Assembly: GCA_030167865.1 (NCBI GenBank) | Contig: JALAGF010001133.1 | Location: 1-64,000, forward strand | Length of the DNA: 64,000 nt | DNA from: Craspedostauros australis | Lineage: Eukaryota | Reading direction: 5' to 3' | Shown: piece after piece, positions 1 through 52,700 of the stretch | Layout: each line of letters opens with the position of its first letter | How positions within the stretch are numbered: the first letter of the stretch is position 1 | Made by a program: the position numbers and the translations under genes | The notes under the pieces: generated by a model | Seen by the model: the letters and a program-made list of their open reading frames with translations, nothing else | What the model was told of the DNA's origin: nothing | Databases searched by the model: none

Positions 1-408
1 AGACTGTCTTCCGACCATGTGTACGACGTCCAAAAGCCAAGCCATCCAGGTTTGGACACATGTTGTTGTCTAAACTCACAACATCCTTGGCTTGACGGGC
101 GATGTCGGAGGAAAGGCTAAAAAGTTTTAACACGGGCCACTGCGAGGGTATCTTGTGGCGCGGCCGGCGTGTAGAGGTTAGCCTAGATGCTTATAACTNN
201 NNNNNNNNNNNNNNNNNNNNNNNNNNNNNNNNNNNNNNNNNCCCTCCACCTATAGGTCTATCTGTGTGCAAAGTTTCAGATAGGTCATAAAAGTCATTAC
301 GGCTCAGATGCACGCTTCCTAGAGTAACCGGGTCATAATCTTAGCTGGTGCATTAACAGGGAGTGTATTTGTCCCTGGACCTGGACCTGGGCCTGCTGTA
401 CGGTGGAG
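1..408 (+). ncRNA. Candidate structured non-coding element (series of imperfect hairpins), identity unknown; interrupted by N gap and possibly truncated by the window start
   Basis: Complementary segments read directly: 10-15/104-109, 27-30/94-97, 34-41/86-93, 50-58/67-75; 114-120/178-184, 130-134/168-172, 135-138/162-165; 244-250/402-408 enclosing 255-264/277-286, 307-313/348-354 and 357-362/372-377. Several G-U pairs are valid on the + strand. No credible ORF. Confidence 0.4.
199..241. other. Assembly gap (run of N)
   Basis: 43 consecutive N. Confidence 1.
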
Positions 409-524
409 TAATCATCATTGTCTTTTATGGTTTATTTTATTCGTGGTGTGTTGTCTGATGTTTTTGGGATGTCATGCTCCAAAATGGAAGAGGACACGCC
501 GTGTGAACCTGCCGGTCGACTGCA

Positions 525-3500
525 TCATCTCTTTGCCTGCGCAACCCACGGGTGGTTGAGCACCATCGCTATTGACAGCCGATCTTCGGCAAGAGGGTTC
601 AGCATGGCAACGATCAGATCTCGGGACTCTTTCGATGTGGAGTTGGGGAAGAACCAGTGAGGGCCCAGGAACTCGCGCTCGTCGGCGTTGGTGATTGGCG
701 TCATGGCACCGTGGGCTGTTGACCGCCGGCCTCCCATCATGCGGACCTCGTCGTACCATTTCCTGTAGGACTGGTACCGAGGGCAGCGAAGGAGGTTGGC
801 ACCGAACGGCAAGGAGTGGAACAGCATGGCGTACAAGATCACGCCAGCACTCCAGACATCTGCTTTGCTGCCGTCGTAGCCGTGATTGAGGGCATTCCTC
901 GTTCGTGGGTCATCGGACTGTGATATGATTTCCGGGGCGACGTAGTGTGGCGAACCAACGACAGACGTCATCCTTCTCACGAGCGAGGCGTTTTCGGGAA
1001 TGTCAGCCTCGGTTGGCGCGCAGAAGTTCTCCAGCGCACCGCACGTCAGGAAGGAGAGGGCGGTCGCCCCGGATCGGACGAACTGATCCATGGAGTGCCC
1101 GATGGGCGACGAGTTCTGTGCACTGATTTCTGTGATACCGAGCATGCCGGAACGCGAGTTGGATCCCTCCCCGATGGAGTTGTGCGATCGCGGTGAACCG
1201 CGATCGTCCATTACGATGTCGTTGCTCGTTCCGGGATCCATCTGCAGCCTGCTTGCGCTGCGTTGATTCTTGCGTTCGAATGTCGCTGACAGGCCAAAGT
1301 CGGCTATCTTCAGCGTTCGTCCCCCTTTGTTGCCGTCCGTGTGCACAAGCAGGTTCTCCGGTTTCAGATCACGATGGGCGATGCCGTTGTCGTGGCAGTA
1401 CTGGATGCCGCTTGCCAGCTCGAAGAAGTACTTTTGCATCGTCTTTTCCGCACCTTCCGGTTCATCTGCCTCGCTGGGTGGCTTGGCGGCGTTGTTGCTG
1501 ATCAGGTCGAACAGCTCCCCGCCGCGCACGAGCTCGAGGATGAGGAACATGGTGGACTTGGTGTCCTGGATGAATTCCAGAACCTCGAAGAGATGCACGA
1601 CGTTCCTGTGCCTACCGATGAGCATCATGTGGCGGATCTCCTTCGTGGCGGCTCGTCGTTGTCGCAGCCATCGTAGGTACTTGGACGGCACAGCAGGCAC
1701 TGCGATGTATGCATTCAATGGACCGCAGAAGACTGTCGCTCGTGATGTTTGGGCCGCACGCACCAGACCACTGGTGAATAGTGCACGTGTGTGGGATGCA
1801 GTGGCAATTGGTACAATGGAGAATGAATCGCACAGCGTGATAGACGAGCGAGATTTTGGAAAACAATATGAGTGGGATTGAGGAATGTGAGCAAGACCAA
1901 GGGGCAAGGGCAAGGCGCAAGATAAATGTTCATCGACAATGGTTTCATCAAGACCCATCGTGTTCAGAATGGGAACTGAACAACATCTTCACATCATACA
2001 ATGCAGAGCATTCATGAAAGCACGCGAATGGCAGAACACGAACTCACGTTTGTTGGGATGTCAGATCGACAGGCTGGAATCCGTTGTCCGCTTCGCTTCG
2101 GGAGCTGGTGGATTCGGTGGCTTCCGTTGTCTCTGTCTCTCCTGTTCCAATTCTGGACGGTGGTTGGGAGTTGTTCCTTGCGAATGCTGGGAGCGGCGGC
2201 GGTGGCTGTCCGGCGTTGACCTTCTCGATGGCCTGCAGCATCTCCTCGAATTCTACATCGGACACTGCGAACGGGACGTGTCCCCAAATCTCGATGCACC
2301 GCGTGAGGGTGAGTTCATGCAACTTATTGGTCTTTGGGTCCATGAATGCTGCGATCAAGCTGAGACGCAAACCCTTTTCTGGTGATCCCCTGTTGACATG
2401 CACTCCCTTGCCCAGCGACGACGCGGCCGATGCACCGCCGTCCTTGGAGCCGTTGGCATTGCCGGAGTACCGCTGCAGCGTCCGCAGGTTGCGGCTGTTG
2501 GGATTGACGAGCCACCAGACATGCTTCTCCGTCATGGGCTTGAGCCCTTGCTTGATTTCCATGGTCATGCCGTCGCCCCTTCGCACCACGACTGCTCCGT
2601 GAAGTCCTTCCGCCGAATCGATGCGAAAGCCAACGGGGTTGAGGATCTTAACGGCGACGGTGTCGTCCGCGAGTCCCTGCCGAAGCGCTTGGCCTGTCTG
2701 TCCCGATGACGTCGCCGAGTTGGGATCAAGTCGAACAGAAACGGCTCGGCTGTATTTTCCATTTCCAGACTTTCGGCCGTTCTTGCCTTTCGGCGACACG
2801 CCTTCATCTTCATCCACTGTCACTTCGATTGCAAGACCTGGCTCTTCGATACCGGCGGCGTTGCCAGCAGATCTGTCGTTTTCGTCGCCCTTGCTTGATG
2901 GCGACTGCGCGGATGCTGGCGACATCGGTGCAACGACATCGTCTGCGTTGGAATCGTTGACATCTCCGTATGCGTTTCCCGTCGTGCCCTGGACGAGACT
3001 CATGGGGGAGCAAAAGAAGGCAGGCGGTTCATCATCCGCATTGGTGCTTCCGCCCACACTTCGTCCAGACGTCGTGCCGTTGTCCGTGCTGCTGCTGCTC
3101 TTGGTAATGCTGTTGCTTCCGCCACCGGTACTTCCGCGTCGCGTTGAGATGATGGTGTCGCGGACGGGATACTCCTCCATCGGCCGCAATCTGTGACCTT
3201 CGTACACAACACCAGCCACGCCGTCGCCCAAGTAGTTACCGAGCTTGTAAGTCGGCTTGCTGTCAACCGAGATGACCTTCCCATCATACGCATCCACCTT
3301 CCTGCAGAATCCATCGCGTTCCTTCCTCCATTGCTTCTCCGCGGAATACCCACCAGAGCGAACCTCATTGATTTGAGACGATCCTCCCGTCCTTCCATTC
3401 TTGCCGCCTTTGTTCTTGGTGGGGTTGGAACCTTTGCCTTTGCCGTTGGGCTTGACAATGCTTGGGGGTGCGAAGTTCTGTTTGATGACAACATGTCGAG

Positions 3501-4247
3501 TGGATCAGTCAACGTGTCGGTTAGTCGGACGGACGAACATAGGTGAAAAAGAATGCGGAAAGGGGTTTGGGGCAAGTGATGCATTGTGCAATGGAACAAC
3601 ACACCATGATACCATACACGATGTGGATGATGAATAAATGAGGCATGGAAAGGTGAGTTGAGAAGACGTTGCACAATTAGTATAGAGAACACAAATAGTA
3701 TTCACATCAACATCAGATGGCAACGCAACATGCGCGGGAAGTGTTCAAGTGGAGTACAAGTCTGCACATCCATTTGGTTGTTGCTGATGGTGCATGTCCA
3801 AAAGGTTGATCAACTCACCTCCAAAGGATGGGACTCCATGTCTGCGTCGATGTTCACGTTCTTCCGGCTTCGTGAAGTGGATGCACCGCTCATTCGGCTG
3901 CTTCCGGATTGACTGTGGTTGCTGCTGTCCCGACCGAAGGATGTTTTCAACTTTCGGATCAAGCCGCTGCCCTTCTTGCCGCTCCTGCTGCTCTTGACGC
4001 TGGAGGCGGACTGGTTGCCCTCCGATGGCGTGAAGGAACCGAGGCTGGGGTCCGAGTTGGTTCTGGAGGATTTGCTGAAGACTCTGCCGCCGCTCGCGCG
4101 ACGGTCTTTGTTGCGTTCCTTGCCGTCCTTCTTGTTGCTGCCGCGTCTCAGGAATCTGCTCTTCCAGCCATTGCCGCCCTTTGGTGGCAGGTCCTGTGGC
4201 GTTCCCACCTTCCCGTTTGGAATCATGGTGGCTGTTGTGGTCGCCAT
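525..4247 (-). CDS. Ser/Thr protein kinase (CAMK/SNF1-like catalytic motifs) with very large insertions, ~1034 aa, 3 exons
   Basis: Exons 4247-3819, 3477-2048 and 1770-525, joined by GTGAGT...CAG introns with matching phases (0, 2). Motifs: Gly loop LGDGVAGVVY, VAVK, alphaC ATKEIRHM, HRDLKPEN, DFG, GSPHYVAPE, DVWSAGVILY. AATAAA on the minus strand near 431-441. Confidence 0.9.
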
Positions 4248-6454
4248 GGTGTCGTGAGTTGTGCTTTGTGAGCTATGCCTTGTGCCTGGTGAAGGTGCTT
4301 CGTGAGAGAAAGGAATCTCTCCAATGCTCAATGCTTGCCAGCCAATCCCCGCGTGCTACTATAATAAATGAGAGCTGTTTGTATTGTTGTTGCGGCAGAG
4401 GTTGAATCTCGTCCCAGGAATGCTCTATCGTCGACCGTCTTTCTCTGTTATAGTACGCGCACTGGACAACTAGGAAGCGCTCCTCGATTTTGTTCTCCAG
4501 AGGAATGTGCTTTGGTGCGAAGTTTTCTGTCTGTGTCCGTTGTCTGCGGATGCCTTCGTACTCGTATGGTACGGTATGGTATGATGTGATATGATGTGGT
4601 ATGCGTGCACCAATGATGAAGAAACACCGCCAAAAATCCTGTTCTTCTTCTTCTCCTCGTATTGCTCTCTGTTGCTCTCTATCGGTGGTCTGATCCCTCG
4701 TCTCCTTCAATCTACGTCTCGTCGACCACGACCTCAGCAATGCATTGACGCCTGTTGGATGTGATGGTCTATGGTAAAGTACGAGTGTGTATGTTGGAGA
4801 GTAGTGGTGATGTTGATGAGGTTGATGATGTTCGTGGCAATAGCCGAAGGAGTGGCGACCAACAAGATGGTGGTTTCTTGGCGTGCTTGTCGCTCACTCT
4901 CTCTTGGTTGCCTGTTGGTGGCAGATGTCGTATCAGCGCCACACAGAGAGAGACAACCAGCGCAAAAGGCAAAAGACAGTGGAACTACTCTCACCGACAC
5001 GAGACGAGGTACGCGCCGAAAACACGTGATGGAAGGCAACAACGAGAACAACACGAGCGCGAAGAAAGATGGCAAGAAAGAACCACGACGTTACTCGCGT
5101 GGCACGCACAGTCCCCATTGCGTCCATTGTTCTTCCACGCCGATTCCGACAATCGGTGGTGACTCGTGTTGGAGTTGGCGCACATTGCAGCACACGCGCT
5201 CGCGACGCCTACACGGCTGGAACCAACTGTGTGCGCCAGCGTGAACAGAAATTCGCTTTATTTACGCCTTTGCCCAATTCAGCGAACACCGCAAAACCAA
5301 GGTTGGTGGGACTTTTTTGTATATTAAATATTCATACATTAATGAAATACTTGCATCAGACGTTATTGAATCATGTGAGACTTTGATGTGGATGACTTTG
5401 ACCAACTCGATCACCTGTGGATTCTCACGACAAAGCTCACCCACATCCGATCCCACCGAGTCCTTCCGAATTCGTTTTGTTCTTGGAAGAGCCTTTTTGA
5501 AAGTCGGAGGAGTCGATTGGGGCTGAAGCAGTCCTCGTTGTTTGGTTGGGTTTGTGGATCGTCTGTCGTGGTTGTCGTGGCAACAACAACAGCAACAGCT
5601 GTTTGGTTGTCGTGGTCGTACTCGTAGCCTCGCAGTTTCACGTTTTGTGGACTCGTTGCGTGCAGTCTGTGCGTTGTATTTCGCCAGATCGCGACAAACC
5701 ACAGGCGCGCAGCAGAACACTGCTGAAAACCAAAGAGTCACGACAACGCCAGCGGCGCGTGTTTGTTGGGGACACAAATCGTCATCGACAGCAAAAAGGG
5801 TGAGTGGAGCAATGACTGGTCTCAAGCAGCTTGGAGGAGGGATCCTTCGTGAGGCACGGCGTTGTGGATCCTGCGACGATGGCGTCGGGGCAGCGTCGCC
5901 TTGCGATAGGCAACCGTATGTATGCGGGAGTTCCATGGCAGGAGCGTTTGGTTGATGGATCAGATACGCCTACATGTGGGACCATCATCGCGGTGATCGA
6001 CAGCGGGGCTTGCTGCGCTGCCTGGTGCCCGCGCAACAAGCAGAACAGGTTTTCGCCCTTGTTGTGCCAGTTTTTGGGGCTCCCAAGATTCCGTTCCCTT
6101 CCGGGACATCCACCAAGAAACGGTGTTGCCTGCTTGACTTCTTGGTTTCGCCTCGCATGATCCGCTCCCCCAAACATCGTCGCCTGTCACCACACGAAGC
6201 ACAAAGACTCGCCCTCAGCACAACACGGCCTTCTTCGGCATCGCGGCTGCTGTCTCCTTTTTTCGCGGTGTTCCTTCTCCCACTATCTTCGCCATCTGCT
6301 CCCAACAACCACGACAACAAAACACGACGCTCACACACCTCCGCACTCATTTTCATACTCATACTCTGTCGTAACCGAACACAGTTGCAGTTGATCATCA
6401 CACACAGGCACACACGCATACATACAGATACCACACACAAGCACAAACTTCACA

Positions 6455-18705: not shown

Positions 18706-19462
18706 TCTCTCTGCAGATGGAGATGGAGGTGGAGGTGGAGCAGAGTAGGTCGTACGTAGTCTAGAGTCCCCTGTGGACTAATGTGTATGGTGGTGGGCGG
18801 AGTCGATTTGACTGGAGCACAGCGAGCTTGGCGGCTTCACGTGTGATCGTTGTGAATGATGAGAGGAACAGATCGTGGAGGAGAGAGAGAGAGAGAGTGA
18901 TGGCGATCGTGTTGGTGTTGGGGATCACGATGACGACTGTTGCGTTAATTGGATTAGTGCTTGGTTGTGACTAAGAGCATGTCTGTGGCTGTCATCGTGA
19001 TGATGTCTTGCAGATCGCGCAGCTCTGTGCCGTGCCGCGTTGTGTGCAAAGGAGCAGCCGAGTTCCTGGAACGCTGACGAAACAACACGGAAAACACATT
19101 TCTGCCACCCGTACCGTATTTGACCAACATGACCCAACAGTAGGCTCGAATGGCTTCGCGACATTTCTTCTGTGCCTTCGGGAAAATCGGCTTCAGCGAA
19201 GCTGGTTCCAGCGAAAGTCATTTCGGTGGAACCAGAGAACACCGAATTGCAGACACGCAGCCAATCCCAACTTGAACGAAGAACACAACAAAACGGCACC
19301 GAAGACACCTCCAGCGTGCGTCTTTTGTGAGTGTGCATGCACAAATCACAACAAATGCCAACAGAGCTCACAATTTGCAAACAACTCACTCCTGCACACA
19401 ACCAACCAGCCAGCAACAATCAATCAATCAATCCACGCCACACCGCACTACAGCACATCAAC

Positions 19463-49769: not shown

Positions 49770-52700
49770 GAACGGGGAGGCAAAGACGGACAGAACAGGA
49801 TAGGACAGGATGGGCAACAACAGAGGCAGAGAGGCGGAACGAGACAGGCACACACGGCAATCGTTACACTCTTTGGGCGCCTCCGACCTGTCTGTCTGCC
49901 TCTCTTCCTCCGTTCGCGGTCCTCCACACTGCATGGCATCCACGCTCAATTTTCTCATTATATTTCCATTCCATCTCCTCCTCCTCAGACTTGCACAGCG
50001 TAGTACAATAGTGAAACTTCATATTCTATCACACTCTACTCTGCTCCACAGTTATATCTTGCCTGCGGGTGCGCCTTGTTTGTGGTCGCAGTTGCTCGAC
50101 AGCTCGTCAGAGAGCACAGAACAGCAATTTGTTCTGCAACTATGAGCATGAGTAGTTCGTATGGGTGTTGCACATCAGCCATCCTGACTCCATACAAGTA
50201 CGTATAACACCATGCGTGCCTGGCTTCTCCTGGAGGTCGCAGGTATAGAACCATACGCACGAGGGCTCTTGGGGTATAACAGCGGCAGGTATTCACAACA
50301 TCCACGACGCGGAAGGATATGTTTGCCATTCTCCAGTACGTACAATACGCAGCACACAATCGCGTGGCGACGGACCACCTCCTCCGACGGTGAAGGCCAC
50401 AGCGATGCGTGGTGGTGTGCGTACGTACGAGTACAAGATGATCACCAAGGGCAGTCACATGAGCGCAGTAATCATGGATTTGTCCCAAGGCGCTGACCAC
50501 AGGCGATCGCGTGGCTCCGAAGTACTCTGGTCGGTTTCGTCGCCACGCCCGGCTGCCATAATAGGCAGGCGTGTCCTACGAACAACCACCTCCCTCACCA
50601 CCTTTCCGAGACGCAGGGACGGATCGCCAAGCTCCTGCGTGATGCCCACAGCGGCTCCCACGCTCTCCCTCAAATCGGAAAATGGTCCTCCCTGCGACAC
50701 CAGAACAATCCGGCGGCCCCATGTTCGCACCAGATCCACCACAAGCAACAGGATTCTGGAGCACAAGACGCGTCGAAGCACGTTCTTCATCCTCGCCAGG
50801 CACGTACCTGCCTTTCGGTGTGGCCGCAGATCGCTTCCCCTGAATCCGCCACCCTCATCCACAAGGCGCACGCGTACCCGACTGATGTTTTTGGTTGGTT
50901 CCTCGTTTGGGTACTAGTACATTTCGGGCTGCGACATGTGAAGGTGGTGCACAGCCGCCAGAGTTCTGATCATCACGAACACGAGTGTCATCGGCGGGAA
51001 CACTCCCCTCGGACAAGATGTAAGAGGGGATGCAGCTTCGAGCCCTACTCGTGGGGGGCGGGACAGTGCGTTTCGGTTCCTCTTTACGTACAAGAATGGT
51101 ATAAGTATGCACTACTCCCTCCCGATTTGCACACAAACCACCATCAGAGATTGTGGTGGGGGAAGATCGGTTCTGTGACGTCGAAAGCACAAAGGGGCCT
51201 TGGGGCGATAGAGAGCCTTCGTTGTCCTCAAGGCTCGTATGTATGAGATGGTCCCGGTATCATTTGCTTGTGCTATGTGCAAAACACAACTGCCGCCACA
51301 TTTCTGTTGCCTCTTTGGGTGCCAGTCCAAAAGGCAGTGCAGCATGGGTAGATAGCGCATGCTTGCATGCACCACGGAGTAAGCATGATGCGCTCTGCAC
51401 AAACGAACACCAAGACTCCCCAAGGAAGAGAGCGCTGTGGCGGTTGCGACGGTGGAGACCGATCTTGACATCAAACGGCGAAGTTCTCGACGCTGTTTTG
51501 GGAATCGGTGTTGATTTCTTGTTGGTATCTTTGTTCGTTGGCGCGCTACGCAAGGCAGAGTAGAGAAGATAGGTTTCACAGAATCGTTCCCGAGTACCAT
51601 TGAATCGTGTGTTGCGTTCGCACGAACCGACGATCCACGACTAACGCGGTTTGTTGACGTGTGTGGAGAAAATCTGACGTCAGCAACATCACAAGAAACG
51701 AACACACACGATTCGAATTCGATCGTTGGAGCTGTTCTCACCCAAGACCAACTTGTCGGGACGAAGTCGCATGTGACATTAGTCTGACAGCGTGTATTGC
51801 GTGGGATTTGATCGATTTTTCTGGCGCAGAACACGACTGTCGTGCGACAATGCACAATGGGAGCGGGGCAGACAAGGCGCATTTGAGGGGGGCTGTTGGC
51901 GATGTGATGGTTCGACCACGATCATTCCTCCTTTTGGGGGTCGAGAAATGTCAACCACAATCCCTCTTGTCTGATAAAAAGACCGCGCCATTGGCACCGT
52001 GCCTCCGTGATGGTGCGCGAAGATGCACCAAAAGGAAACTTGCTGGGGGGGACATTTGGTACGCGCTCCGACCGACAAGTTCGACTGTGAGGCGAAAACA
52101 AAAGTTGTGTGCGTGTGCGCGTGGTGTCTGCGGTGCTGGCAGTCTTTGGTCTTGGTCTTGGCTTTGCGTTTGGTGAGAGCGAGTGCGTGGGTGAGCAAGG
52201 GGAGGGAGAGTGATTGATTGGTGGTTCACGTTCTTTTCTCTTCTCTCCCTCGCTCTCTCCGTCTCGCTGTCGCGTTGTCGTTGTGGCTGTTGCGGTTGTT
52301 GTGGTTTTTGTCACCGTCGTGGTTCTCGGTCTTTGTTTCCTCCTTGTTCTTGTGTGTCCCTCTGTGTCTCTTTCCGTTGCGTTGCTTTGTCTTCCTCCGT
52401 GTCTCTTAGTTGCTGAACCGCGCGGCGAGAGTGATGACGTGAGACAAGCATCCCAGAATCCAAAACGACAACACCACCAAGACAAGGCGGAGAGAAAAGG
52501 CACGCAGCGAAATCAATTTGATACGCAGAACGAGCTCCTCATCGCCATCGCCATTGCCATCACCATCGCTGTTGCCGCAACTTTCACTGCCATCACATCT
52601 CGGCAAGCGCAGCTGTCTGACCACCTCGGCATAGCAGCAAGAGCGACGATACAATACTCGTCGAGTAGCACGAATAGAGAAGCACAGAGTCTTGCACGAG

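Follow-up and report, generated by a model that had tools for sequence, protein, structure and literature searches.

The first 334 nt of the window, the window being the whole 64-kb stretch of DNA that was analysed, are almost certainly one end of a terminal inverted repeat (TIR) DNA transposon. The best explanation as a whole, held with high confidence, is that this is the end of an ~11.35-kb non-autonomous cut-and-paste element with a Sola-like mobiliser, a captured TLDc gene and hairpins that arose by chance. A first-pass annotation had presented 1–430 as a candidate novel structured RNA and named, among other options, a mobile element whose end lies tail-to-tail with the kinase gene; it is this option that is supported, by a sharp boundary at 334, by the copies at other loci and by a TIR of 132 bp. 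Copies with TIRs and target-site duplications (TSDs) had been named there as the finding that would reclassify the segment: both copies and TIRs are present, while the evidence for a TSD is indirect only.

Boundary, copies and target site

The features around the boundary are, in window positions:

1–334: element end "A"; the TIR DNA transposon it belongs to is dispersed, non-autonomous and ~11.35 kb long, and the first base of the contig already lies within it
199–241: run of 43 N over the inner stretch of the TIR and the junction there; read through in other copies
203–334: TIR, 132 bp identical at the A and B ends (134 bp with one mismatch)
319–334, minus strand: 16-nt terminal core GACCCGGTTACTCTAG, common to two other repeat families
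335–338, plus strand: target 4-mer ATAA (xTAy), the presumed half of a 4-bp TSD
339–524, minus strand: single-copy host DNA, probably 3' UTR and spacer, 3' of the kinase stop and with no second match in the genome
525–1988, minus strand: final open frame of a gene for a Ser/Thr protein kinase (Pkinase, E 3.8e-45)

The boundary is defined by searches of the window's own genome. A query of 242–440 returned 12 matches, all of which, except the window itself, end by query base 106 and most at 96–97; homology at the other loci ends at window 334–337. The inner DNA (1–198) gave seven matches, comprising the window, three more at 100%, two at 92–93% and a 55-base remnant at 87%. Ten ends, once aligned, remain near-identical as far as GGGTC (window 334), beyond which their flanks are unrelated, and inward of the last 132–135 bases they split into two interiors, A (that of the window) and B. 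With six A ends, the genome holds at least six copies. Contig C3841 has an A end at its start and the first 55 bases of the B TIR reached at its other end, giving an estimated element length of 11,353 bp. The part of the TIR under the N run was taken from sibling copies; an identical N run occupies the corresponding place in one copy (C1353). The Helitron and LTR readings were dropped because the two ends carry the identical 132 bp in inverted orientation.

The 16-nt terminus has 12 exact matches in the genome against one control match, ten of them in this family and two in other families, whose sequence departs from it beyond base 16. The GACCCGGTTACTCTAG core is likely the end that is bound or cleaved by a transposase. 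A looser terminal pattern gave 14 matches against nine control matches and added the ends on C4430 and C2855, which are leads only as the count is near that of the control. Other repeat families have 9–16 terminal bases and the xTAy context in common with the element (C686:3236-3251, C3490:44252-44267, C4430:512-525 and C2855:666-679), and no transposase was found in the examined stretches of these families. The apparent tie of the C686 sister family to a transposase locus proved to be an unrelated insertion within that transposase. Older TIR relatives, 77–88% diverged and without the terminal bases, are located at C901:9537-9720 and C6683:880-957, the former adjoining DNA of a Copia-like LTR retrotransposon (a label given by visual inspection of its gag and integrase-like frames). 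The element interior displays degenerate short tandem repeats with units of about 10–16 bases (L020:1740-2075 and 4750-4835).

The kinase stop lies about 190 bp from the element end. The Ser/Thr kinase gene spans 525–3700 on the minus strand, has several exons and contains a long insertion within its kinase domain. A public run (X1) is stored as contigs, and its status as RNA is a guess. Two of its contigs fall on window 1–4000, one covering the end of the kinase (404–962, minus strand; RNA status guessed) and none covering 1–304, which is evidence neither way as contigs cannot show absence. At another copy a gene with alanyl-tRNA-synthetase-type domains (C5464:15500-16590) ends beside the element, and the last 34 bases of a run X1 contig, of equally guessed RNA status, are the TIR end of that copy.

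The context at the target site is fixed. The dinucleotide TA occupies positions −3/−2 at 12 of 12 termini, with −4 and −1 free, and this x-T-A-y context before all termini fits a 4-bp duplication centred on TA; TTAA itself is found at only 2/12 ends. Each of the three identified B ends has an A end with a complementary 4-mer (probability by chance 0.058), with no copy having both flanks on one contig. Because no copy has both ends intact on one contig the TSD of the ~11.35-kb element was not read directly and is deduced from these flanks, direct 4-bp TSDs coming from the sister transposase family only. Searches with two flanks found no empty site, but only the query itself or a paralogue whose match fails to cross the insertion point. 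A Sola-like element has inserted into one A copy, just where the TIR of that copy ends inwards, and the two halves (...TTAT|GAGCCC and GGGCTC|TTAT...) display a direct 4-bp duplication of the inserted element:

C5683:46189-48062 and C6500:4162-4561: nested Sola-like insertion, split over two contigs, TTAT duplication

The Sola-like family also inserts into its own ends (nested copies, L090).

A candidate Sola-like mobiliser

No transposase was found in the element by Pfam on 117 frames, by blastx or by a profile search with the transposase family described below, which found no remnant (best E 1.5). Thus, the element is non-autonomous. A QSDNA-like word in the B-end interior has no backing from Pfam or the profile.

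The mobiliser is probably a Sola-like transposase, for which an abundant sister family in the same genome is the candidate, with 60 matches to its interior, 154 transposase matches and groups whose identity falls to 38%. The TA context is present in 25/26 motif matches of this family, the exception being an internal match. Two autonomous members were delimited:

C66:79289-83854: flanks ATAC/ATAC, 160-bp TIRs beginning GACCCGG, 1258-aa frame
C5047 (L088:203-6225): flanks TTAA/TTAA, ~160-bp TIRs, 934-aa transposase frame

The termini of the element and of C66 are identical over the first seven bases (GACCCGG) and match at 8/11 over the first eleven. The Repbase rule for non-autonomous elements, as given in the available text of PMC4455052, asks for equal TSD length and at most one mismatch in bases 1–11 to a classified member. 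The three differences to C66 exceed this limit, no closer autonomous element was present among the loci examined, and no autonomous element was found to end in precisely GACCCGGTTAC. The element therefore works like a Sola client, but is not filed as Sola.

The sister transposase matches no Pfam family. Its homologues, 32 of 1737 candidates, include MMETSP/EukProt entries and a Phytophthora fragariae protein, and none of the 32 carries a Sola label. The structural model (pLDDT 78.6) weakly matches integrases, terminase nucleases and Mos1, all of them RNase H-like, and the best match is RSV integrase (E 3e-4, TM about 0.3, a weak score). These weak matches suggest an RNase H/integrase-like enzyme. 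Three invariant residues (D84, D168 and D214) stand, when compared by eye, in the same order as the Sola2 motifs in the portion of PMC3627910 supplement S10 that was available. The family thus looks Sola-like, as far as a model and an alignment by eye can suggest.

Sola3 elements have GAG termini and a TTAA target. The superfamily as a whole has a DDD transposase, 4-bp TSDs, TIRs of 11–1124 bp and lengths mostly of 2–9 kb, with some above 15 kb (PMC10741241, available text), and the accessible part of PMC7466962 lists it as one kind of DNA transposon in the diatom Cyclotella cryptica. No Sola rows were found in the accessible portion of the PMC3985635 supplement. The element resembles Sola in its 4-bp target (with an inferred TSD), long TIRs and GA[CG] termini. 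The sister family shares with Sola the RNase H-like fold and the D...SD...GK-x3-D order, the latter by eye against the Sola2 alignment in the available part of PMC3627910. In contrast, the target is here relaxed to xTAy, the element starts with GAC and is without a transposase. The motifs themselves differ, DFAENY, SDG and TSHGK in Sola2 corresponding to LDHKQK, QSDNA and EAQTGK in the sister family in a comparison by eye only.

A rival assignment of the end holds that the TIR belongs to another superfamily (Kolobok, piggyBac-like or unnamed), or to a blunt TAN^NTA inserter that makes no duplication, and not to a Sola-like client. This is unlikely, although it is the strongest of the alternatives: the 11-base comparison with C66, the lack of a transposase remnant and the indirect evidence for the element's own TSD all speak for it. 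Against it stand the xTAy signature, which is that of the Sola-like family, the seven terminal bases in common with an autonomous member and the similar TIR lengths (132 versus about 160 bp). Kolobok and piggyBac moreover prefer a strict TTAA, the target of the latter being given as TTAA in the available text of PMC5199201, which does not fit two TTAA ends out of 12.

Under the preferred Sola-like reading, a transposase acting in trans would bind the TIRs and excise the element, and insertion at xTAy with a 4-nt staggered cut would create the 4-bp duplication. The enzyme would be supplied by the abundant RNase H-fold, Sola-like family, which has xTAy duplications and one member of which ends in GACCCGG. 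The near-identical ends point to recent movement. The copy of the window would have inserted some 190 bp past the stop codon of the kinase.

Hairpins within the element end

The stems proposed for 1–430 and the associated features are:

3–92, plus strand: tail of a stop-free frame of 114–151 aa that belongs to no family, is interrupted in one copy and is probably no gene
7–112, plus strand: rod 1, a genuine local cluster of inverted repeats within the subterminal part of the element; its structure is not conserved
10/104 and 27/94, plus strand: rod 1 pairs TCCGAC/GTCGGA and CGTC/GACG (motif search)
34/86 and 50/67: inner pairs of rod 1, AAGCCAAG/CTTGGCTT and GTTTGGACA/TGTCTAAAC (motif search)
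114–184, plus strand: rod 2, not above chance, its outer stem broken in sibling copies
114/178, 130/168 and 135/162: rod 2 pairs AGGCTAA/TTAGCCT, ACACG/CGTGT and GGCC/GGCC
244–408, plus strand: proposed multibranch domain, TIR (244–334) joined to unique host flank (339–408)
244/402: closing helix CTCCACC/GGTGGAG, with a TTTT run at 423–426 (motif search)

All stem motifs quoted in the first-pass annotation were found about where it had placed them, and the folding statistics that it proposed for both strands separate rod 1 from the remainder. Rod 1 is the only part that clearly beats dinucleotide shuffles: z is −3.25 for 1–120 on the plus strand, with 0/200 shuffles as good, and a repeat with 300 shuffles gave −3.22 for 1–120 and −3.54 for 7–112 (−2.50 for 1–120 when only 25 shuffles were used). 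Rod 2 (−1.20 to −1.87 in two shuffle runs) and the 3' domain (−1.20 for 242–430 and −2.0 for 242–410) are weak. Window 1–198 as a whole folds at z −2.14, and a gap-free sibling of 1–334 at −1.64 on the plus and −0.70 on the minus strand. The paired fraction of 1–198 is 0.59 against 0.61 in shuffles, and G-U pairs, described as many, make up 8/58 (0.14) of the pairs against 0.15; in 1–120 they are 4/38 (0.11) against 0.12 ± 0.05. As both quantities in 1–198 equal those of the shuffles, neither dense pairing nor a G-U bias holds.

The background of the 64-kb window was scanned with 400 strand-windows of 120 nt, four of which reached z ≤ −3.25 and six z ≤ −3; inside the element 1/156 reached z ≤ −3. 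With 4/400 at z ≤ −3.25, a visual search of 64 kb should come upon one such rod. Rod 1 is surpassed by positions 4801–4920 (minus), 19201–19320 (plus) and 52161–52280 (both strands), whose z values lie between −3.9 and −4.6; the last of these is a low-complexity purine-rich/pyrimidine-rich pair.

The multibranch domain does not survive the location of the junction. CTCCACC (244–250) lies within the TIR and GGTGGAG (402–408), together with the T4 run, in single-copy host DNA, so that the helix spans the insertion junction; it is present at 1/10 ends, GGTGGAG with up to one mismatch being absent from the 150-nt flanks of the nine others. The TIR part of the domain folded alone has a z of 0.14. 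Because 1–334 is multi-copy and 339–430 is single-copy host flank, the proposed RNA is a chimera, and its closing helix is a coincidental accident of this insertion site.

Comparison of the copies addresses selection on structure directly, albeit with low power, as six copies of 1–198 comprise only three distinct rows. Over these three rows, 47 of the 58 pairs are invariant, two are changed on one side, nine are broken and none is compensatory. All informative changes among copies point away from selection on structure, within that low power. Rod 1 folds at z −1.07 and −0.65 in two diverged siblings.

Omega-RNAs are found at the ends of TnpB/Fanzor elements, and a comparable role can be imagined here, the element end encoding a functional structured RNA (rods 1–2, read towards the TIR) that is regulatory or serves as a guide scaffold. 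We consider this very improbable. It gains from rod 1, with a z of −3.2 to −3.5 on the plus strand only and kept in four identical copies, from the invariant helix AAGCCAAG/CTTGGCTT and from the capture of Fanzor1 by Sola2 that is reported in the accessible part of PMC3627910. However, the broken and uncompensated pairs, the weak folding of the diverged siblings and the shuffle-like share of G-U pairs all count against it. Moreover, six frames of seven element stretches held no Fanzor RD or C4 motif, and Pfam had no match in the end regions when read through with X. In its boldest variant, the RNA of rod 1 would be kept in the youngest, identical copies and lost in older ones, and would regulate or guide transposition, for which we see equally slender prospects. 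For the frame that ends at window 92, neither a homologue beyond the element nor an Atlas match above 0.78 was found. A pattern scan of metagenomes gave a single hit, in a contig of bacterial appearance that agreed over just 23 bases, and this was rejected as chance.

The lead readings of the first-pass annotation, a novel Pol III ncRNA, a telomerase RNA or an H/ACA-like RNA, are not supported in view of the Rfam result, the lack of compensatory change and the junction at 334. Rfam has no match to 1–430 at E ≤ 10 and none to a gap-free sibling copy. The telomerase template that was suspected in the gap, which we take to be about 1.5 telomere repeats (CTAACCCTA for a TTAGGG unit), has no counterpart with up to one mismatch on either strand of the gap-free copy. 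A stand-alone cellular ncRNA gene over 1–430 can in practice be set aside, since its stems and the TTTT at 423–426 are present but multi-copy 1–334 is joined there to single-copy 339–430, the closing helix is confined to one of ten ends, no Rfam match, template-like motif or tRNA was found (for the latter in gap-free copies), and B-box matches in gap-free copies are at chance level and outside the rods.

On the transposon reading, the rods look like chance self-complementarity in subterminal DNA. The ncRNA claim is rejected as a false positive, which arose because the stretch that folds best had been selected and because stems were drawn across the junction of an insertion.

Cargo and comparison with known systems

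Pfam on the 117 stop-free frames of the element gave one curated match, TLDc. About 5 kb of the interior is 84–92% identical to C1547 and C5594, over which an open counterpart of the TLDc gene outside the element is split. C1547 holds the 5' part, open over 935 aa with host genes upstream, and C5594 the 3' part, whose open frame closes with a complete TLD domain (E 2e-26) and is followed by DNA that does not belong to the element. The element copies of the gene, which we take to be OXR1-like, have stops and frameshifts. The 5' part of C5594 has a frameshift in common with them, so that C5594 may be a collapsed chimera or itself derived. The cargo is likely to be a captured host gene, which would have been taken up once from a host locus, copied with the element and then decayed. 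The absence of a transposase together with the broken copy of a host TLDc gene suggests, from sequence, that the element works like a Pack-type non-autonomous element.

What is new here is modest and concerns gene capture by a Sola-like element, the transposon end itself being ordinary. That a Sola-like "Pack" element took up an entire gene, in a genome of diatom type, is slightly more likely than not and would be a modest novelty; a literature search that lacked most subscription journals gave no such report. If confirmed, the capture would show gene duplication of the Pack type in a superfamily other than those commonly cited, with a TLDc gene copied at least six times. The Sola-like family, with its 154 matches, frames above 1000 aa and relaxed xTAy target, would likewise be a source of candidate active transposases for algae.

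The kinds of Pack-TYPE or Pack-TIR element given in the available text of PMC12187468 are Pack-MULE, Pack-CACTA, Pack-hAT, Pack-Harbinger and Pack-Mariner. The element is like these in that TIRs surround captured genomic DNA with coding capacity, a transposase is lacking, the copies are dispersed and the cargo is decayed. In contrast, its cargo is apparently a whole ~5-kb gene and not fragments, its length is 11.35 kb and its target is a 4-bp xTAy. Sola is not among the superfamilies named in that part of PMC12187468, and the host is here an alga, labelled a diatom in the first-pass annotation. The capture of Fanzor1 by Sola2 elements, as far as it is described in the accessible part of PMC3627910, offers a second comparison. 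In those chimeras, as in the element, Sola-type ends stand round a captured passenger and the transposase is mostly or wholly lost. The Sola2-Fanzor1 TIRs are 12–21 bp long, and no Fanzor motif was found in the stretches of the element that were searched, whose TIRs extend over 132 bp and enclose a host TLDc gene.
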